64,000 nt of DNA from Candidatus Tayloriibacteriota bacterium (lineage in GTDB: Bacteria; Patescibacteriota; Minisyncoccia; Phycocordibacterales; PALSA-1337), in the NCBI GenBank assembly GCA_943350765.1, contig CALRAJ010000002.1, positions 72,951 through 136,950 on the forward strand. Reading direction: 5' to 3'. The position numbers and the translations under genes are program-made. How positions within the stretch are numbered: the stretch's first letter is position 1; each line of letters starts with the position of its first letter. A model generated the notes under the pieces. The model saw only the letters and a list, made by a program, of their open reading frames with translations. It was not told the origin of the DNA and searched no databases. Shown one piece after another: positions 5,381-60,118 of the stretch.

Positions 5381-5419
5381 TGAACGGCTCAACAGGGCTG
5401 TTGAGCCGTTCAAATGGCT
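5381..5419. repeat. H-family hairpin repeat
   Basis: gaacggctcaacagggctgttgagccgttcaaatggct. Confidence 0.8.
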
Positions 5420-5485
5420 TGGTTGAGAGGTTTTTAGAGTATGCTAAAAAGTGGCTATTTGGTGTAAATTTGCTATGATATTGAG

Positions 5486-7250: not shown

Positions 7251-7322
7251 GCCCCTGTAGTTCAATGGATAGAACAATTCCGTCCTAAGGAGGAAATCCA
7301 GGTTCGATTCCTGGTGGGGGCA
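7251..7322 (+). tRNA. tRNA-Arg (anticodon CCU)
   Basis: Acceptor GCCCCTG/TGGGGGC (two G-U pairs), D-arm GTTC-AATGGATA-GAAC, anticodon loop GTCCTAA, T-arm CCAGG-TTCGATT-CCTGG; the 27-43 pair is mismatched. Confidence 0.7.
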
Positions 7323-7383
7323 CAACAAAAATATCCAAAGGATATCTTTTTGTTGCTACCCAGCCAGAATCGAACTTATCTTT

Positions 7384-10153: not shown

Positions 10154-10193
10154 GCTTCAAAGGCTCAACGGTACACCGTTGAGCCTTTGAAGC
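10154..10193. repeat. H-family hairpin repeat
   Basis: gcttcaaaggctcaacggtacaccgttgagcctttgaagc. Confidence 0.8.
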
Positions 10194-10245
10194 AAAAATA
10201 CTCACACTGCCTTTGTTTTTTTTATTTTTATGCTATAATCACTCT

Positions 10246-14685: not shown

Positions 14686-15918
14686 TTATGCAAGTTTTTG
14701 CGAAGCGGTGGTATTTGATAGTTTTAGACATCCTTCAGCCCTCAGGGTGCTAGAATCTCCTCGAATACCAGAAATATAGCGATGATAACCTGCCACTCCT
14801 ATCATTATTGCATTGTCGGTAGTGTGAGAAATGCGAGGGATTTGTAATTGTATGTCAGGTAATACTTGCACTAGCTCCTCAAAAGATTTTCTAATACGCG
14901 TATTTGCAACAACACCTCCACCTAGGATCAGTGTTTTAGCCCCAGTGCGTTCAAGACACTTTTTTGTTTTTGAGATGATTACTTCTGTGACCGCGTCTTC
15001 AAATTGCCGAGCGATTTGCATTTGTATGTCGGGTGTCAATAAAGATATTTTTTGTACCATATACAAAACTGCCGTTTTTATTCCAGAAAAGGAAAAGTCG
15101 AAATCTTTTGAATAAATCATAGGGCGGGGGAGCTTGTATTGAGAATTTTCTCCATTCGGTCTGTGTATCCTATCTGCATCGGCTAATTTAGAAATCTCAG
15201 GTCCACCAGGATAGGGAAGTCCGAGAATGCGGGCGACCTTGTCGAAAGCCTCCCCAAGAGCATCGTCACGAGTTTGTCCTACTATTTGATATTTTCCTTC
15301 TTCTGTTATAAGTACTAGCTCAGTATGACCACCTGAAATGAGTAGAGCAAGGGCTGGATAGGCAACTTTTTTTATAGAAAATGAAGTTGTCTTTTCATCA
15401 GTTTTTTCTTCGAGCAGTGCGACAGCTATATGCCCCTCCATGTGATTGGTGGGAATAAGTGGAACACCCCAGAGTTTTGAAAGTGCTTTTGCAAAACTAA
15501 CACCAACCCACAAAGCTGGCTCGAGACCTGGTCCATGGGTAACTGCTATAGCGTCAATAGTAGGCTTTTCAAGTGTGGTAATTTCTTTACAAAAAAGCTC
15601 AGACAGATTATTTTCCCTTTCCAGAATTTTATTTATTTCGTTTAGAGAGTTTGGGTCAAGATCGGTAATATTTTGACTAAGCTTTTTTTGGTATAAATCA
15701 GCTTCTTTTAAGCATTGTATAGTGAGTGGTACGAGGTTTTTACCATGTTCCCTCTTTGCGAGCATCGGAAAAACACCGCCATATTCTCTATGAATATCAA
15801 CTTGGGAAAAGAGTGTATTACCGAGAATGGTCACGGTGATGTCGCTACCTTGCACTTCAAATTGAAGCAGACTCACCGCCGTCTCGTCGCATGATGTTTC
15901 GATAGAAAGTATAATCAT
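14686..15918 (-). CDS. tsaD: tRNA N6-adenosine threonylcarbamoyltransferase (TsaD/Kae1 family) with an internal insertion and a C-terminal extension
   Basis: MIILSIETSCDETAV N-terminus, an HMEGH metal site, and a GGVVANTRIR motif; about 70 aa longer than canonical TsaD. Confidence 0.85.
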   Translation of the reverse strand: MIILSIETSCDETAVSLLQFEVQGSDITVTILGNTLFSQVDIHREYGGVFPMLAKREHGKNLVPLTIQCLKEADLYQKKLSQNITDLDPNSLNEINKILERENNLSELFCKEITTLEKPTIDAIAVTHGPGLEPALWVGVSFAKALSKLWGVPLIPTNHMEGHIAVALLEEKTDEKTTSFSIKKVAYPALALLISGGHTELVLITEEGKYQIVGQTRDDALGEAFDKVARILGLPYPGGPEISKLADADRIHRPNGENSQYKLPRPMIYSKDFDFSFSGIKTAVLYMVQKISLLTPDIQMQIARQFEDAVTEVIISKTKKCLERTGAKTLILGGGVVANTRIRKSFEELVQVLPDIQLQIPRISHTTDNAIMIGVAGYHRYISGIRGDSSTLRAEGCLKLSNTTASQKLA

Positions 15919-15954
15919 GTTTAAAGAAATCGAAAATCCATATATTATTTGATT

Positions 15955-15977
15955 TTGTGACCCCACGGAGAGACACG
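15955..15977 (-). repeat. Duplicated 3'-end fragment of tRNA-Glu (direct repeat with 16139-16161)
   Basis: ttttgtgaccccacggagag occurs twice; the second copy is the 3' end of the tRNA-Glu gene. Confidence 0.75.
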
Positions 15978-16140
15978 AGTACGTTTTCGGTCATGGATAA
16001 TTTGCTCGCCGTCGCTCATAAATTTTCGTTACCACGACTCGCGGTTCAACTTTACTAAGTCTCATTCCGCTCCGTCTTTCGACTTTCCGTAGAGCCTACA
16101 AAAATATACTCACCAAACGCTCCACGTTAGGTTTGTTATT
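15978..16140. repeat. ~160-bp element A inserted between the tRNA-Glu 3'-end direct repeats; homologous copy (element B) at 59823-60010
   Basis: Shared blocks tttgctcgccgtcgctca-aaa, cgactcg, ctccgtct, tttttatttttgtg-acc. Confidence 0.6.
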
Positions 16141-16144
16141 TTTG

Positions 16145-16216
16145 TGACCCCACGGAGAGTCGAACTCCGCTTAACAGATTGAAAACCTGCTGTCCTAACC
16201 GATAGACGATGGGGCC
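16145..16216 (-). tRNA. tRNA-Glu (anticodon UUC)
   Basis: Reverse complement folds: GGCCCCA-TC-GTCT-ATCGGTTA-GGAC, anticodon loop TTTTCAA, T-arm CGGAG-TTCGACT-CTCCG, acceptor TGGGGTC-A. Confidence 0.8.
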
Positions 16217-16270
16217 TTTCTATAAGGCAGGAATACTATAGCATTCTTATCATTTATGTGGAAGTGAAGT

Positions 16271-17338
16271 ATGCTTGAGCGGTTTAGTATTATATTGTAT
16301 ACTTACATTATATTTAAATATCAAATGATGTCAGTATATATAGAATCAGGTCATGAAATCAGTAATTTTTTAATACAAGCAAAATCGTCTGTCGGTTCGT
16401 GGGAAAATCTTTCTAAAAAAGCGCCTGTATCCTCAAGGACACTTCGTCATTGGTATAATGGTAAGTCTTATATATCACTGAATGTTCTTGAGCTACTAAG
16501 TGACCAGCTCAAAATAGCTTTGCCTCCATATAAGCTGGTTGATTTTTTGGATCAAAAAAGAATTGCAGGCAAAAAAGGTGGTTTGGCGCGCGTTGCTCTC
16601 TATGGAAATCCAGGAACAATCGCAGGAAGATTGCGGGGTGGATTACAATCGATAAAGGTTCAAGCAAAGAATCCCGCTTCACCATTTGTGCAAAAAAAGA
16701 TTGCTATACCAGCATATTCATCTAAGTTGGCAGAATTTGTCGGGATTTTATTGGGGGATGGTCATGTTGACGAAAGACAAATTTCTATATCGATAGGAGG
16801 TGATGAGTTTGAATATACCAAATATATCTCGGATTTAAGTTTCAAACTATTTAATTATCGGCCGTCTATAAAAAAGAAAAAAGGAGTAGAAATGTATACT
16901 ATGGTTTTTTCTCGAACAGCCCTCGTTGACTATATTAAGGGGATTGGCCTAATCGATCATCATAAAGTAAGGTCGCAAAGCGAAGTCCCTTTATGGGTAC
17001 AGAGTAGTAAGAGTTATTCAAAGGCCTGTCTTCGAGGGTTGTTTGACACAGACGGTTCTTTTTTCATCGATAGACATTTAATAAAAAAGTCGTTATATTA
17101 TAATCCGGGTGTCGCGTTTACGAACTACTCATTACCGATACTTAACTTTTTCTATTCAACATTAGTTGTTTTGGGATTTCATCCAACAATATCGAATAAT
17201 AGAAATGTACTTTTGAGACGAGTCAGTGAGGTGCATCTCTTTTTTAAAGTTATTAAAAGTAACAACCCAAAGCATCTTGGAAAGTTTAAAGGATTTGTAG
17301 ATAATTATAAAAAAGGAAAGGTACCGAAGAGGTTATAA
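16271..17338 (+). CDS. Free-standing LAGLIDADG homing endonuclease (two LAGLIDADG motifs) with an N-terminal extension
   Basis: LAEFVGILLGDGHV and LRGLFDTDGSF motifs. The 3' end of the ORF overlaps tRNA-Ser by ~24 nt; the true start may be the internal Met at ~16325. Confidence 0.8.
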   Translation: MLERFSIILYTYIIFKYQMMSVYIESGHEISNFLIQAKSSVGSWENLSKKAPVSSRTLRHWYNGKSYISLNVLELLSDQLKIALPPYKLVDFLDQKRIAGKKGGLARVALYGNPGTIAGRLRGGLQSIKVQAKNPASPFVQKKIAIPAYSSKLAEFVGILLGDGHVDERQISISIGGDEFEYTKYISDLSFKLFNYRPSIKKKKGVEMYTMVFSRTALVDYIKGIGLIDHHKVRSQSEVPLWVQSSKSYSKACLRGLFDTDGSFFIDRHLIKKSLYYNPGVAFTNYSLPILNFFYSTLVVLGFHPTISNNRNVLLRRVSEVHLFFKVIKSNNPKHLGKFKGFVDNYKKGKVPKRL

Positions 17339-17404
17339 CGGCGCCGATTCGAAATCGGATGGCCGGGTCAAACCGGCACGAGGGTTCGAATCCCTCCCTT
17401 TCCG
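17315..17404 (+). tRNA. tRNA-Ser (anticodon CGA), type II with a long variable arm
   Basis: Acceptor GGAAAGG/CCTTTCC, long D-loop, anticodon loop TTCGAAA, variable arm GGCCGGG-TCAAA-CCGGC, T-arm GAGGG-TTCGAAT-CCCTC, discriminator G. Confidence 0.7.
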
Positions 17405-17436
17405 CCTGAGCAAAAACCTGCTATTCTGTGGATCAT

Positions 17437-17510
17437 GGGCGGTTAGCTCATTTAGCTAGAGCGCATCGTTGACGTCGATGAGGTAATAGGTGCAATTCCT
17501 ATACCGCCCA
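17437..17510 (+). tRNA. tRNA-Val (anticodon GAC)
   Basis: GGGCGGT-TA-GCTC...GAGC, anticodon arm CATCG-TTGACGT-CGATG, acceptor ACCGCCC-A; the T-loop TGCAATT is atypical. Confidence 0.65.
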
Positions 17511-17572
17511 CACACTAGACACAAGAATTGCGGTCGATCTTAAGATTAGTAAATGGTACAAATATATACTAA

Positions 17573-18142
17573 ATGTTTCTAGATATTGGAATAGGTTTAA
17601 TGGTTTCAAAGATTTTGATTAAAACTATGGGCTTTTATGCACCCACAGTTTTTATTATTCTTGGTGTGGTTTTCTCATTATTACCAGATATTGATTTTAT
17701 TTTTCATCTATTAAAAAAGAAAAGACTGAACGAATATAACCACAAACACCGTGACTATTTGCATTACCCGATACTGTATATTGGCGGTGGTTTTATTTTA
17801 TTTCTATTTGTTGATGTAAAAATAGCAATTTTGTTTGCTGTTGTTTCAGCTCTACATTTTTTACACGATAGTGTTGGTATCGGTTGGGGAGTAAAGTGGC
17901 TGTATCCATTCTCAAAAAATAGCTTTATGTTTTGCTATAAAATTAGAGAAAAAGGAGAGGGTTTGAGACGTGTTTTCCCATCACAACTTTATTACTCATG
18001 GACGGAGGAGCAAGTAGAACAAAAATCCTTACTATATGGTGATAAGGACTGGGTAAAAAATATTTACCTTAAATTTAGTTGGTATGCTTTTATTGAGTAT
18101 ATAGGTTTTCTGATAGGATTAGGGTTTCTTTTTTGGCTATAA
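17573..18142 (+). CDS. Membrane-bound metal-dependent hydrolase-like protein (DUF457/YdjM-like)
   Basis: Multi-TM protein with LHFLHDS...GIGWG motifs. Confidence 0.4.
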   Translation: MFLDIGIGLMVSKILIKTMGFYAPTVFIILGVVFSLLPDIDFIFHLLKKKRLNEYNHKHRDYLHYPILYIGGGFILFLFVDVKIAILFAVVSALHFLHDSVGIGWGVKWLYPFSKNSFMFCYKIREKGEGLRRVFPSQLYYSWTEEQVEQKSLLYGDKDWVKNIYLKFSWYAFIEYIGFLIGLGFLFWL

Positions 18143-18156
18143 TTTTTTGTGTAATT

Positions 18157-18300
18157 ACCCCGAATTACGAAATACCTTTCTAGGCATATCATTTTGAAAG
18201 CACGAGTATTTCTTTGGTAAGAAATCTCTCAAGTCTCAGCTACCCGCTTCCGAAGTCTTTCAAAAAGATACACCTGCGACGGTATTTTGTAATTCGGGGT
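18157..18300. mobile_element. MITE-like element copy 2 (subtype A)
   Basis: TIRs accccgaattacgaaatacc / ggtattttgtaattcggggt (19/20); same core as copy 1. Confidence 0.8.
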
Positions 18301-18302
18301 AC

Positions 18303-19030
18303 TTACTTTAAATCTAAATCTCTTCTGAAATTCAGTTCCTTTTTTTCAAAGATACTTGGTTTACCAAGTTTACCCCAGTAAGAAAGCTGTTTCCTCATAT
18401 CCGATAGATTTTTCATAGGATGCGAGTGTCTGACTGCAAATGATGGGTCAATCATTATTATGTAACCTGCGTCTCTGGCCCATTTTGCCCATTCACCATC
18501 TTCACCGCCTAGTCCGTACTTTTCGTCAAAATGATGTTTTTCCCAAAGAGATTTTCTGATGGCACAGTTGGTTGCCCCGAGTACCCCCATTTCATCCACA
18601 ACCATCCTTTTACCACGAAGCAGTAGTTTTAAATACCAGTAATTGTAAAGAAAAACTCAAGTAGGTGAGCATTTTTTCTAGGGCGACATGGCCCATAAAA
18701 TCCTGCCATTTTTGGGTTTTCGAAATTCTTAACCACAGTTTGAAGCCACTTATCCGAAGTGGGTAGGGAATGTCCCACGGTCAAAACCACATACTCGTAG
18801 GATGAGTTTTCTATACCAAGGTTCATTGATTTTGGATAGGAAAAGGCGTTTTTAGGCAGAGTGATGACTTTTGCATCAAAGCTTTCTGCGAGCTCCTTTG
18901 TCCCATCGGTGGACTCATTATCTACCACAATAATTTCGAAAGGCACACTACATTTTTGCTTTTTAAGCATAAACAAAAGCTTTTGCAGGCTATCCTTTTC
19001 GTTGAGTGTTCGTATTACGATTGATATCAT
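18303..19030 (-). pseudogene. Family-2 glycosyltransferase split by a frameshift into two ORFs (18629-19030 and 18303-18605)
   Basis: N-terminal half IVIRTLNE...VVDNESTDGT (GT-A fold, DxD region) and C-terminal half continue in different reading frames across ~18605-18630. Confidence 0.6.
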
Positions 19031-26473: not shown

Positions 26474-26512
26474 GAACGGCTCAACAGGGCTGTTGAGCCG
26501 TTCAAATGGCTC
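26474..26512. repeat. H-family hairpin repeat
   Basis: gaacggctcaacagggctgttgagccgttcaaatggctc. Confidence 0.8.
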
Positions 26513-26562
26513 TACATAGGCTCAGCAAAGAATCAGCCAAAGGTGATTTTGTGGTAAAAAAG

Positions 26563-26683: not shown

Positions 26684-26772
26684 TTTATTGCAATTGTGGA
26701 GAATACCCCGACGGCTTGCCGCGGGGATGAATCCGCAAGAATGAAGATGAAGTCGGCGGAGCCGACACTCCT
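26684..26772 (+). ncRNA. Structured element E copy 1 (candidate small RNA or cis element); near-identical copy at 48782-48870
   Basis: ~85 nt sharing about 95% identity with copy 2; hairpins CCCCGaCGG-cttg-CCGcGGGG and GTCGGC-gga-GCCGAC. Confidence 0.45.
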
Positions 26773-26886
26773 GCAACAAAGTTTACCCTGTCGTCTCGCC
26801 TAATACCCCGCCGAGGTAATCCGAGGGAATAGCTTGCTACAGGGATAGGACGAGGCTAAACTTTATTGTAACTTAGTCAAAACTTT

Positions 26887-34086: not shown

Positions 34087-34175
34087 GAACGGCTCAAGGA
34101 GCGGAGGCGACGAAGATAACGAATCTTGCTAGATTCGTTATAAGGCTTTTGAAGCCTGTTGAGCCGTTCAAATGG
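34087..34175. repeat. H-family hairpin with a ~50-nt internal insertion
   Basis: gaacggctcaa[ggagcgg...aacgaatcttgctagattcgtt...gaagcct]gttgagccgttcaaatggct. Confidence 0.7.
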
Positions 34176-34227
34176 CTTGTTTGAGGCTCCGTACAGAATA
34201 TACTAAAGGTGTATTTTAGACCAAAAA

Positions 34228-34968: not shown

Positions 34969-35028
34969 TTTTTTGGTGAAATGATTTTAAGATTTATGAT
35001 ACTCGAATATTAAAGCTACCTACCCAAA

Positions 35029-35168
35029 ATTACAAAATACCGTCGCAAGCGTATCTTTTAAATAGACTTCGGAGGCGGGTAGCTGAGACTTGAGAGATTT
35101 CTTACCAAAGAAATACTCGTGCTATTTAAAAGATATGCTAAGAAAGGTGTTTTATAATTTGGGGTACC
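35029..35168. mobile_element. MITE-like element copy 3 (subtype A, inverted orientation)
   Basis: TIRs acccaaaattacaaaatacc / ggtgttttataatttggggt; core is the reverse complement of copies 1 and 2. Confidence 0.8.
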
Positions 35169-35214
35169 CAAGTCTCTATTGTCTACTATCTGTTCCTAAG
35201 CTATACTACGATAT

Positions 35215-48781: not shown

Positions 48782-48870
48782 TTTATTGCAATTGTGGATT
48801 CATCCCCGACGGCTTGCCGCGGGGATGAATCCGCAAGAATGAGGATGAAGTCGGCGGAGCCGACACTACT
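48782..48870 (+). ncRNA. Structured element E copy 2, bracketed by two terminator hairpins
   Basis: Preceded by gcacagggttgtgc + T-tract (48755-48785) and followed by terminator 48913-48960. Confidence 0.5.
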
Positions 48871-48912
48871 ACATCCGCTCAATTCTGATTGAGCGAGCAG
48901 TAGTCGTATGAC

Positions 48913-50654: not shown

Positions 50655-50697
50655 GTTACTGGAAAGACGCTTTTTTCCTGTAATTTTTTTCAAGAGC

Positions 50698-50839
50698 ATC
50701 AAATTACGAAATACTGTCGCAGGCGTATCTTTTAAAGGGGGTTCGCAGGCGGGTAGCCGAGATTTCAGGAAAAAATTAGTAAATTTTTATCCGTACCCTT
50801 TAAAAGATATGCCAAGAAAAGTATTTTGTAATTTGGGGT
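50698..50839. mobile_element. MITE-like element copy 4 (subtype B)
   Basis: TIR aaattacgaaatact / agtattttgtaatttgggg; core gggggttcgcaggcgggtagccgagatttcagg. Confidence 0.75.
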
Positions 50840-50906
50840 AAGAAAATTAAAAAGTATCGTATCGTATTTGTAATCCAGTCAGCGTTTTGTTATACTTAGG
50901 AGCATT

Positions 50907-53402: not shown

Positions 53403-53405
53403 TAG

Positions 53406-53536
53406 ATTAAAATACCTTTCTGGGTATATTTTTTTGAAAGCACGAGTATTTTTCTGGTGAAAAATCTCTCAAGTCTCAGCTACCCGCTTCCGAAGTCTTT
53501 CAAAAAGATATACCCAGAAAGGTATTTTAATTCGGT
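53406..53536. mobile_element. MITE-like element copy 5 (subtype A)
   Basis: TIR aaaatacctttctgggtatat / atatacccagaaaggtatttt (perfect); subtype A core. Confidence 0.8.
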
Positions 53537-53620
53537 ATAAATTAAGTTTTATCTATATGTCTTTTCAGAAATATAGTCTCCAGCAAAGGCATATTTTGAC
53601 TTGATTGCTTATGTGGTATA

Positions 53621-53762
53621 CCCCAAATTACGAAATACTGTCGCAGGCGTATCTTTTAATGGGGGTTCGCAGGCGGGTAGCCGAGATTTCAGGAATTTTC
53701 TACCAAGAAAATATCCGTACCCTTTAAAAGATATACCCAGAAAGGTATTTCGTAATTTGGGG
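53621..53762. mobile_element. MITE-like element copy 6 (subtype B)
   Basis: Perfect TIR ccccaaattacgaaatac / gtatttcgtaatttgggg; core matches copy 4. Confidence 0.8.
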
Positions 53763-53806
53763 TATTAATGAGAAAAATATCATTTATTAGAGGCATATTT
53801 TACCTC

Positions 53807-59439: not shown

Positions 59440-59700
59440 GTCGTGGGTGGGAGAGGGAGAGGAAGAGGAATCTTTCCCCTTACAGGGGCAGTATCCCGAT
59501 TGGGTTTTTTATTTGCGAGTACGCTTTACAAAACCTCAATCGGGCTTCAAGTCCTCTCCGCAAGTCGAACACAGAGCGGGAGAGGAGTCTTTTTCCTTAC
59601 AGGAACGGTTACCGTCGCTGGACTTTTTTTTGCTTGATTACAAGCTCAAAAAAGTGCTCAGCGAGGCTTCAAGTCCTCTCCGCAAAGCGTTCCACGCTTT
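59440..59700. repeat. Two tandem ~125-bp repeat units, each ending in a tRNA-Leu T-arm-like segment (GGCTTCAAGTCCTCTCCGCAA)
   Basis: Units gggagaggaagagg...ggcttcaagtcctctccgcaag and gcgggagaggagtc...ggcttcaagtcctctccgcaaa; 15-nt match to the tRNA-Leu(UAG) T-arm/acceptor in inverted orientation. Confidence 0.6.
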
Positions 59701-59822: not shown

Positions 59823-60010
59823 GTGTATTATCGAATTATTTCTATTGATTGTGGTCACGAATATTTTGCTCGCCGTCGCTCACAAAATTTCTCGACCCCG
59901 ACTCGTCAATATTTCTTGCTAGAAATATTGCTCCGTCTCGCACAAGTCTCAAAAAATCTACAGCCGTGTAAATTTTTATTTTTGTGGACCACAACTTTTT
60001 CACTTCGTGA
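59823..60010. repeat. Element B (homolog of element A at 15978-16140) between tRNA-Leu and tRNA-Lys
   Basis: tttgctcgccgtcgctcacaaaa...cgactcg...ctccgtct...tttttatttttgtggacc. Confidence 0.55.
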
Positions 60011-60118
60011 ACTCAGTGAAAAGTCGCAGCCCCCGCCTCCTTTCGCTCTGCTCCAGTCCGGCCCGCACATTGCAAAGAAAATTGTCGAGGATTGGGACAA
60101 TTTTTAATATTTGCAATG

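Follow-up and report, generated by a model that had tools for sequence, protein, structure and literature searches.

The stretch analyzed here (the window) comprises 64,000 nucleotides of contig CALRAJ010000002.1 from a Candidatus Tayloriibacteriota bacterium and contains, within a cluster of tRNA genes, a free-standing LAGLIDADG endonuclease gene that runs into a tRNA-Ser(CGA) gene, together with a short insert, tail element A, behind the neighboring tRNA-Glu gene. Taking both subjects together, we consider it fairly probable that two elements unrelated to each other occupy tRNA gene ends here: the endonuclease gene and the tRNA-Ser(CGA) that follows it would constitute one mobile homing cassette carrying replacement tRNA sequence, and the tail element would be a structured RNA that spreads, or formerly spread, as a non-autonomous insertion. 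The genomes closest to the window were metagenome-assembled genomes of Patescibacteria. ARAGORN and Rfam agreed on the three tRNA genes of the locus, Glu(UUC), Ser(CGA), and Val(GAC); their coordinates and those of the other features are collected in Table 1, and related loci are designated by L numbers.

A free-standing LAGLIDADG gene in a tRNA cluster

An earlier reading of this DNA, made from the letters alone (the sequence-only reading), had described a 355-amino-acid open reading frame (ORF) with both LAGLIDADG motifs, LLGDGHV and LFDTDGSF, between tRNA-Glu on the minus strand and tRNA-Ser and tRNA-Val on the plus strand. Our analysis confirmed this ORF, which matched the Pfam family LAGLIDADG_3 with 32.7 bits (cutoff, 22.5). 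Its true start is likely M20 at position 16328, giving a protein of 336 amino acids, and this start is favored because an identical database protein (P0001) begins at the twentieth codon. An exhaustive profile-free protein search yielded 261 clusters at 50% identity with E values of 1e-30 or lower. Both motifs of the window protein carry the predicted catalytic acidic residue, and in an alignment of 26 members (27 to 68% identical), G143-D144-G145 and D240-T241-G243 were invariant, with D242 kept in at least 90%. The AlphaFold2 model built from this alignment (mean predicted local distance difference test score, 89) revealed two alpha/beta core domains preceded by a helical domain at the N-terminus, and both the model and Foldseek recovered the tandem alpha-beta-beta-alpha-beta-beta-alpha core of a two-motif LAGLIDADG monomer. 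All 50 listed Foldseek matches in the PDB were LAGLIDADG enzymes or intein endonuclease domains (E values down to 4e-11), headed by I-Tsp061I (TM-score up to 0.75), the TliVMA intein endonuclease, PI-PfuI, I-AniI, and I-DmoI. Matches in NCBIfam were confined to intein-bearing proteins and ran through their LAGLIDADG domain, the PHROGs match was to an endonuclease family, and precomputed annotations assigned N-terminal XRE-type helix-turn-helix (HTH) domains to several relatives. No intron or intein housing of the endonuclease was found, the ORF being free-standing and lacking an Rfam intron match. Judged from its sequence, the ORF encodes a free-standing, apparently active LAGLIDADG homing endonuclease, a two-motif monomer with an N-terminal HTH. 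It does not resemble WhiA-type proteins, given that the catalytic Asp is kept, the HTH is N-terminal rather than C-terminal, and the distribution is sporadic.

Linkage to tRNA-Ser and empty sites

A family scan that took one genome per species found at least 451 loci encoding relatives, and the best-scoring 80 were analyzed. A tRNA-Ser gene on the same strand directly follows the endonuclease gene in 76 of these 80, at a distance of −24 to about +70 nt from the aligned coding end, and at least three of the four loci without an adjoining tRNA-Ser lie at or near a contig end. The linked tRNA-Ser genes across the family include the isoacceptors CGA, GGA, UGA, and GCU, and in a neighbor-joining protein tree the endonuclease clades were largely split by isoacceptor, with a few switches. 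The same arrangement, with tRNA-Ser directly 3' on the same strand, was seen in L001 to L004, and the first three homologs (68%, 42%, and 40% identical) all had tRNA-Glu on the minus strand and the endonuclease and tRNA-Ser(CGA) on the plus strand; the protein genes flanking L004 are wholly unlike those of the window. The overlap of about eight codons with tRNA-Ser(CGA) that had been read from the sequence measures 24 nt (seven codons and the stop). The same 24-nt overlap recurs in the first two homologs (L001 to L003), and the ORF called in L004 reads through the tRNA. The C-terminus of the window subfamily, G-x-V-P-K-R/W-S/L, is encoded by the acceptor and D-arm sequence at the 5' end of the tRNA. 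The overlap is not incidental, and the linkage to tRNA-Ser is family-wide. As a separate observation, ARAGORN called a divergent tRNA-Ser gene, whose anticodon is the unusual ACU, on the upstream side of the endonuclease in L035, L046, L057, L061, L063, L072 (3175-3264, minus strand), and L084, and at such loci tRNA-Ser(GCU) follows the endonuclease.

Using the window TsaD, we fetched 80 metagenomic loci (L086 to L165; TsaD 47 to 74% identical), 40 of which hold a divergent pair of tRNA-Glu and tRNA-Ser(CGA); TsaD identity in these relatives is 47 to 71%. The endonuclease is present in three of these pairs (spacers of 868 to 923 nt) and absent from 37 (spacers of 66 to 394 nt, and one of 1,181 nt), a presence/absence polymorphism at one conserved site of the kind that characterizes mobile homing. 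L087, the nearest relative with tRNA context, has the gene order and orientation of the window, a 96-nt spacer between tRNA-Glu and tRNA-Ser, and no endonuclease. Identities between the window and L087 were 71% for TsaD, 82% for ValRS, and 86% for tRNA-Glu but 61% for tRNA-Ser, whereas with L005 they were 55% for TsaD, 50% for ValRS, 81% for tRNA-Glu, 68% for the endonuclease, and 95.7% for tRNA-Ser. These contrasts indicate that tRNA-Glu follows the host and tRNA-Ser follows the endonuclease; on identity comparison with these two loci, the window thus displays the incongruence with the host and the co-conversion of a flank that mark a mobile homing element. The pattern is as would be expected if the endonuclease and its tRNA-Ser moved together between lineages, and the gene shows signs of horizontal movement. 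With its polymorphic presence at a fixed site, this agrees with the free-standing homing endonuclease that the sequence-only reading had proposed. That reading had also named a conserved ORF with a cellular function as the finding that would speak against it; the endonuclease is conserved within its family yet sporadic and is not a core cellular gene.

Truncated tRNA-Ser fragments and a proposed homing model

The D-arm of endonuclease-linked tRNA-Ser(CGA) genes reads GTACCGAAGNGGTYATAACGG or GTCGCATAGTGGTCTAGTGCG, whereas that of endonuclease-free genes is mostly GTGGCTGAGTGGTTGAAGGCAC; the corresponding alleles are GGAAGAGTGGCTGAGTGGTCGAAAGCACTGG... in L087 (endonuclease-free type) and GGAAAGGTACCGAAGAGGTTATAACGGCGCC... 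in the window (linked type). A profile made from the 5' ends of endonuclease-free tRNA-Ser genes, used to find displaced fragments, revealed truncated copies of the tRNA-Ser 5' end (positions 1 to 15-27; mode, 22) that lie 40 to 120 nt upstream of the endonuclease on its coding strand. Such fragments occurred in 27 of 86 occupied upstream regions of tRNA-Ser versus 3 of 70 unoccupied ones, and in several of them the acceptor strand agrees with the current tRNA-Ser while the D-arm disagrees. The three unoccupied cases look like relics. In L154 (3742-3898), a tRNA of the endonuclease type is preceded by GGAAGGGTGGCTGAGT and a 47-nt insert, with no endonuclease; the likewise endonuclease-free loci L131 (745-988) and L164 (708-1888) contain an old 5' fragment, hairpins, and an antisense copy, followed by an intact tRNA-Ser. 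The probable relic in the window (Table 1) stands where, relative to the endonuclease, the 27 occupied loci have their clear truncated fragments, and its match is stronger in L001/L005 (E = 0.76). No consistent signal emerged when an antisense copy of the displaced tRNA-Ser 5' fragment was sought within endonuclease cassettes. The 5'-side insertions at tRNA-Ser in L131, L164, and L154 form a mirror image of the 3' tail elements described below, and the L164 spacer also holds a membrane-protein ORF.

In the model that we propose, the endonuclease would cut endonuclease-free tRNA-Ser genes in or near the D-arm, and repair off the occupied allele would copy in the endonuclease gene together with the donor tRNA-Ser, with the two flanking genes, the conserved tRNA-Glu and tRNA-Ser, serving as homology arms. 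The differing D-arm of the donor would destroy the target and protect occupied alleles, and in the window subfamily the same sequence would also encode the C-terminus of the endonuclease. The old 5' piece of the recipient tRNA would stay upstream and decay, and it may supply a promoter.

A structured RNA behind tRNA-Glu

Tail element A is bracketed by an exact 20-mer, TTTTGTGACCCCACGGAGAG, located at 15953-15972 and 16140-16159 (187 nt from start to start, with 167 bp between the copies) and covering 15 to 16 nt of the tRNA-Glu 3' end plus 4 to 5 nt of trailer. The repeat is real, although it had been given as 21 nt at a distance of 165 bp. In 100 shuffles, no match to it was found even when three mismatches were allowed. 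The distal sense copy (S) pairs over 22 bp (dG −25.7) with an antisense copy (AS) at 16079-16104, and this pairing, the closing helix P0, is present in the minimum free energy (MFE) fold. The antisense copy represents the tRNA from C56 to the 3' end plus trailer, and the order outward from the tRNA is spacer, antisense, core, and sense. Within its paired part, the AS arm has three departures from a perfect complement, and each of them keeps pairing as a G-U wobble, which argues for selection at the RNA level. The full window element with its arms folds into a closed three-way junction (z = −2.46), as does the full L124 element (z = −6.34), which has one dominant structure. Folded without its flanks, element A was no more stable than shuffled sequences (z = −0.95 and −1.3), so the signal needs the antisense and sense tRNA arms. 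Only tRNAs reached the Rfam gathering score in the whole window, and permissive scans of both element regions returned chance-level matches. A reading of element A as a small peptide was discarded: a 24-codon frame exists in A and in its homolog B, but it is broken by a 1-nt insertion in L026. The tail is most likely co-transcribed with tRNA-Glu.

The core of element A is homologous to element B in the window and to sequence behind tRNA-Glu in L026, the hairpin sequences differing while their shape is kept. A covariance model built from these three cores and searched against about 1.2 Mb of related loci found 43 family members, 30 of which lie at most 250 nt downstream of a same-strand tRNA, compared with 3.6% expected. 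The tRNAs upstream of tail elements are Glu, Ser, Val, Phe, Lys, and Arg. Immediately after the core, at least 17 members have a 12- to 22-nt copy of the 3' end of the upstream tRNA, mostly from about C56 in the T-loop and often including a few trailer nucleotides; directly 5' of the core, this tRNA stretch is present as its reverse complement, and the closing helix that the two form measures 11 to 24 bp. In the alignment, which was fitted to the model, 94.7% of cells were paired, 25 of 27 pairs had double changes, and the covariation score was 0.654 versus 0.07 to 0.12 for slid controls. G-U pairs outnumbered A-C pairs by 51 to 5, indicating that the folding strand is the tRNA-sense strand. 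Compensatory changes and strand-specific G-U pairs, as expected of a structured RNA, were thus both found in this model-fitted alignment. The existence of a structured RNA family tied to tRNA 3' ends is well supported, and the distal 20-mer, rather than being a bare att scar, provides the 3' strand of the helix that closes a conserved, covarying RNA structure. The att-type duplication suggested earlier held to the extent that the repeat brackets an insert, and of the alternative named with it, a longer duplicated tRNA pseudogene common to the lineage, one half proved correct: the repeat belongs to a longer element shared in the lineage, but this element is not a tRNA pseudogene. Compared with miniature inverted-repeat transposable elements (MITEs), the inverted arms are copied from each host tRNA instead of being shared by the family, and the duplication spans 12 to 22 nt, mostly from about C56.

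Element B was the top match of the family model. Its positions 59853-59905 are 83% identical to 15989-16041, and it had been noted earlier as a diverged homolog next to tRNA-Lys at 59.8 kb; the homology holds, but 178 nt, within which a weak third core (B') lies, separate the element from the tRNA-Lys gene upstream of it, and it directly adjoins tRNA-Leu(UAG) on the 5' side of that gene. No significant closing helix P0 was found in element B. The two tandem elements behind tRNA-Leu(UAG) have a core unlike that of element A but share its design; they are each closed by a helix of tRNA-Leu T-arm-like sequence and its complement around a branched center, with a 13-nt antisense and a 9-nt sense match to the tRNA-Leu end. 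About 43 nt after tRNA-Arg(CCU) (7251-7323), the 7366 region (plus strand) has a 9-nt antisense match (GAATCGAAC) to the tRNA-Arg T-loop region and may, by its sequence, be another decayed tail element. At 4809-4850 of L087, the tRNA-Glu 3' end (TAGGGTCACAAAA) is tandemly repeated and then inverted, forming a perfect 13-bp palindrome before the tail core. L085, the sole match of a conserved 18-mer in viral contigs, is not recognized by the covariance model and was taken as chance.

Possible mobility of the tail element and alternative explanations

The tail is likely, but unproven, to be a non-autonomous mobile element that is spreading now or did so formerly. Orthologous junctions of tRNA-Val and tsaD are filled in L118, L124, and L132 and empty in L104 and L129, and in the filled junctions the sequence returns to the original flank precisely at the end of the distal copy. 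L123 and L142 contain tandem arrays, as does the region behind tRNA-Lys in the window. The view of the tRNA cluster as a target of selfish elements was borne out insofar as tRNA gene ends in this lineage do receive inserted elements. Mechanistically, the element would insert at tRNA position 55/56 in a way that restores the tRNA 3' end, and the antisense copy would mask the displaced tRNA fragment.

A doubtful but serious alternative is that the tail was never mobile and represents an ancient cis-acting RNA module of tRNA operons, acting in processing, stability, insulation, or control of read-through into tsaD or other downstream genes, with the sense copy held identical by gene conversion and the empty sites produced by deletion between direct repeats. 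Such a deletion would recreate the empty allele exactly, the element always has the orientation of its tRNA, and the selection seen on the closing helix, wobble-only changes included, is what an RNA module would show. The window element also groups with an orthologous copy behind tRNA-Glu in L087, which indicates that the insert is old in the lineage, and the Phe-linked copies cluster across genomes. Nevertheless, a homologous core could not stand behind six tRNA species that are not homologous unless it had spread at some time, and tandem arrays exist. Cores at different tRNAs of one genome can be close kin, with B grouping with Val- and Glu-linked copies, and decayed copies without the helix (B and the L087 Glu copy) suggest weak constraint.

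We regard as improbable the explanation that the 20-mer and element A are a shrunken tyrosine-integrase island at the tRNA-Glu 3' end, a relic resembling a cis-mobilizable element (CIME) in which the repeats would be attL and attR and the core an attP arm. A direct repeat from the tRNA T-loop to the 3' end is the classic signature of such islands and is what defines a tRNA-island repeat; filled and empty alleles and the tandem accretion in L123 and L142 would also fit, as would the larger inserts of L072 (1.35 kb) and L086 (more than 2.3 kb), which end in the same core and repeat. However, no integrase was found in these two inserts or in the window insert when ORF translations were inspected, and the same core stands behind six tRNA species, each with its matching repeat, which is hard to square with a fixed attP. 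Moreover, the minimal unit, about 110 to 190 bp long, is found more than 30 times, covariation in the core is strand-specific and of the RNA type, with G-U bias, and an antisense copy pairs with the repeat. In L086 (2353-2462), we also observed a tail core and, behind it, 20 nt of a tRNA-Val 3' end directly adjoining the start codon of tsaD, with no tRNA-Val in the 2.3 kb upstream; this arrangement reflects either a large insertion or a lost tRNA.

For the endonuclease, a distinctly improbable alternative is domestication, in which an HTH and LAGLIDADG protein would act as a regulator or processing factor for tRNA-Ser expression in the manner of WhiA or a maturase, descending vertically with many losses. 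The near-universal tight linkage to tRNA-Ser, the fidelity of clades to one isoacceptor, the intact state of most copies in the best 80 loci, the DNA-binding HTH domain, and the promoter-like tRNA-Ser site within the ORF could all be explained in this way. Against domestication, the aspartates inferred to be catalytic vary little or not at all, in contrast to WhiA or pure maturases, and the gene is absent at the 37 of 40 orthologous sites noted above, the nearest relative with tRNA context included. Between distant hosts, the endonuclease and tRNA-Ser outdo TsaD and ValRS in conservation, and displaced tRNA fragments and endonuclease-less relics exist. Finally, coincidence in an AT-rich genome, for which the low complexity of the trailer TTTTG is the sole argument, is refuted as an origin of the repeat and the ORF/tRNA overlap by the shuffles without a match and by the recurrence of both architectures at dozens of independent loci.

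Several points weigh against the homing cassette and the mobile tail RNA that we favor. The window's own upstream relic is weak (E = 6), a recognizable old tRNA fragment is present in only about one-third of endonuclease-positive loci, and where displaced fragments end is the basis for both the proposed cut site and the proposed immunity of the linked tRNA. The restriction of most clades to one isoacceptor also fits long vertical co-descent with occasional loss, and the high share of intact endonuclease genes is biased by the choice of the best-scoring loci. Regarding the tail, the grouping of the window element with the L087 copy and of the Phe-linked copies with each other speaks for an old element, and the empty sites could derive from deletion between direct copies and not be ancestral. 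No integrase was found in the 167-bp insert, and no integrase, transposase, or reverse transcriptase was found in the L072 and L086 inserts, where ORF translations were inspected without a domain-library scan, the rest of the window being left unscreened for such genes. Moreover, we can name no mechanism by which the end of every new target tRNA would be copied once in inverted and once in direct orientation. The model-fitted alignment also inflates the covariation numbers, although the contrast with the slid controls is too large to be attributed readily to fitting alone.

Feature map and other observations

The minus-strand neighbors of the locus are tsaD (start at 15918) and the gene for valyl-tRNA synthetase; tRNA-Val is followed on the plus strand by a gene for a ydjM-like membrane protein. 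The tRNA module with its divergent tRNA-Glu and tRNA-Ser genes occurs in both orientations relative to tsaD-valS among the tsaD loci (14 versus 26 loci), a distribution that would imply repeated local inversions of the module among relatives. Tail elements inverted to each other stand on both flanks of the module in L087 and could mediate such flips. A single inversion in the window lineage as the origin of the repeat was rejected, both module orientations being common among relatives and L087 having the window's orientation with a tail element already present.

Table 1. Coordinates of features in the window, with strand and the basis of each assignment
Feature	Position	Strand	Basis or remark
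Two tandem tail elements, second core type, behind tRNA-Leu(UAG)	59440-59700	-	Folds, z = −4.95 and −3.62
Tail element B core	59846-59939	-	Top family-model match; R1 105.6 bits, R2 88.2 bits; closing helix and repeat decayed
Weak third core B', directly behind tRNA-Lys, with antisense tRNA-Lys 3' end ahead (TTTGCAATGTGCG)	59979-60064	-	R2 27.9 bits, E = 3e-4
Distal sense copy (S) of tRNA-Glu 3' end and trailer; 3' strand of closing helix P0	15953-15972	-	Exact repeat; MFE pairing
Element A core, three-way junction with two hairpins; conserved junction nucleotides A.G.CGGA ... GAG.C.G.G.C	15982-16078	-	R1 95.7 bits, R2 67.5 bits
Antisense copy (AS) of tRNA-Glu 3' end and trailer; 5' strand of P0	16079-16104	-	Pairing with S
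Spacer with small hairpin between tRNA-Glu and tail element	16105-16143	-	Fold; spacers of relatives typically 33-101 nt
tRNA-Glu(UUC)	16144-16216	-	ARAGORN; Rfam 52.1 bits; last 15-16 nt with 4-5 nt of trailer form the proximal 20-mer
Promoter-like site 5' of tRNA-Glu, TCCACA-16-TATAGT, TG ahead	16235-16262	-	Consensus match only
Probable degenerate relic of displaced tRNA-Ser 5' segment (ggaagtg...gcttgagcggtttag)	16260-16287	+	nhmmer match 16269-16286, E = 6
Promoter-like site for endonuclease, TTGAGC-17-TATACT, overlapping the tRNA-Ser relic	16275-16303	+	Sequence kept in L001/L005
HTH-LAGLIDADG homing endonuclease gene	16328-17338 (maximal ORF from 16271)	+	336 amino acids; inferred catalytic residues D144 and D242
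Promoter-like site for tRNA-Ser within the 3' end of the endonuclease ORF, TTGGAA-17-GATAAT	17277-17305	+	Consensus match only
tRNA-Ser(CGA), endonuclease-linked type, D-arm GTACCGAAGAGGTTATAACGG	17315-17406	+	First 24 nt are the last seven endonuclease codons and the stop
tRNA-Val(GAC), final gene of the tRNA module	17437-17511	+	ARAGORN, Rfam
Hairpin repeat copies of about 160 bp	2132-2290, 18142-18313, 35009-35180, 50695-50840, 53403-53534, 53619-53778		

Other repeats were also observed in the window. Hairpin repeats of about 160 bp, MITE- or REPIN-like, with inverted arms of 45 to 50 nt around a 56-nt center, are present in six copies in the 64 kb, one of them directly after ydjM beside the endonuclease/tRNA locus. 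Further intergenic palindromic repeats (AACGGCTCAACAGGGCTGTTGAGCCGTTCAA and GCTTCAAAGGCTCAACGG...CCGTTGAGCCTTTGAAGC) lie at 151-216, 5383-5448, 26475-26540, and 34141-34206 and also at 250-294 and 10154-10198. A 92-nt direct repeat, 91% identical and 22 kb apart (26684-26775 and 48782-48873), contains a GC-rich hairpin (CCCCGACGGCTTGCCGCGGGG).

Relation to known systems and significance

By analogy, the closest functional parallel of the endonuclease is the intronless homing practiced by free-standing phage enzymes. Enzymes of the Seg and Mob type home without introns, and flanking markers are co-converted. T4 SegB is a phage homing endonuclease whose gene lies in a tRNA cluster (PMC13096335). 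The window gene resembles segB and those of other free-standing phage enzymes in standing free within a tRNA cluster, where the adjacent tRNA region is inherited with the endonuclease. SegB, however, is a GIY-YIG enzyme of a phage, whereas the window enzyme is a LAGLIDADG protein of a cellular Patescibacteria chromosome, and its family is tied to the tRNA class of one amino acid; unlike in SegB, the window ORF reaches its stop within the tRNA, and the insertion is marked by a displaced piece of the tRNA 5' end. Closest by fold and phylum are the LAGLIDADG enzymes reported in rRNA insertion sequences of candidate phyla radiation (CPR) bacteria, a report that never mentions tRNA (PMC11270868), and these share the LAGLIDADG_3 fold and motif as well as the host phylum. 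The archaeal intron and intein enzymes I-Tsp061I, PI-PfuI, and TliVMA likewise share the fold and the motif type. All of these rRNA-insertion, intron, and intein enzymes are located in sequence that is removed from the product, whereas the window enzyme lies outside the tRNA, has an extra N-terminal HTH, and belongs to a cassette that would keep the host gene intact through replacement tRNA sequence. The proposed cassette follows the logic of free-standing mitochondrial endonuclease genes with a duplicate gene terminus, of the Allomyces atp6/ORF360 type: the mobile ORF brings along a new terminus for the host gene, to which it is fused, and the old terminus stays behind as a pseudo-fragment. 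Such cases concern the 3' ends of organelle protein-coding genes and mostly involve GIY-YIG enzymes, in contrast to the present case, which concerns a bacterial tRNA gene and its 5' end and in which the replacement RNA-gene sequence doubles as coding sequence.

The tail element has in common with tRNA-targeting integrative elements and CIMEs the direct repeat from the T-loop to the 3' end, the intact tRNA at one end, and tandem accretion. It differs from CIMEs in the absence of an integrase from the inserts examined, the unit of about 110 to 190 bp, the use of one core for many tRNAs, the antisense copy, and the covarying RNA. With integron attC sites and REPIN-type repeats, it shares a structure-defined nature, a long imperfect inverted repeat around a variable or branched center, non-autonomy, and a frequent position 3' of genes; unlike these, its arms are copied from the adjoining tRNA, its center is conserved in sequence, and no IntI or RAYT partner was seen. 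The tail element thus lacks defining features of integrase-left partial-tRNA repeats, attC sites, and REPINs alike. The literature searched, coverage of which was incomplete, contained no earlier account of LAGLIDADG genes linked to tRNA-Ser or of the tail RNA.

We propose tentatively, at slightly less than even confidence in the whole, that these are two undescribed end-replacing invaders of Patescibacteria tRNA genes, namely, a LAGLIDADG family that homes without introns into tRNA-Ser by bringing the tRNA or its 5' segment, part of which it uses as coding sequence, and a set of tRNA-trailer RNAs whose closing helix, a sense copy paired with an antisense one, imitates the acceptor/T-stem of the host tRNA. 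As part of this joint proposal, the tail RNA may be processed like a tRNA, or it may guide or mask insertion at T-loop position 55/56. There is a substantial chance that the tail RNA represents a new class. On the usual view, a homing endonuclease can enter an essential gene without harm only when housed in an intron or intein; invasion of a tRNA gene by way of replacement tRNA sequence, which also encodes the C-terminus of the endonuclease, would be another route. If true, the cassette would explain the odd tRNA-Ser D-arms and the tRNA fragments in CPR genomes, and the endonucleases would be a ready set of natural meganucleases whose targets, about 20 bp long and predictable, would each lie in one tRNA-Ser isoacceptor. 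The tail elements, in turn, may constitute a new class of structured RNA associated with tRNA genes, in a phylum of very small genomes, and they affect tRNA annotation by creating partial tRNA copies.

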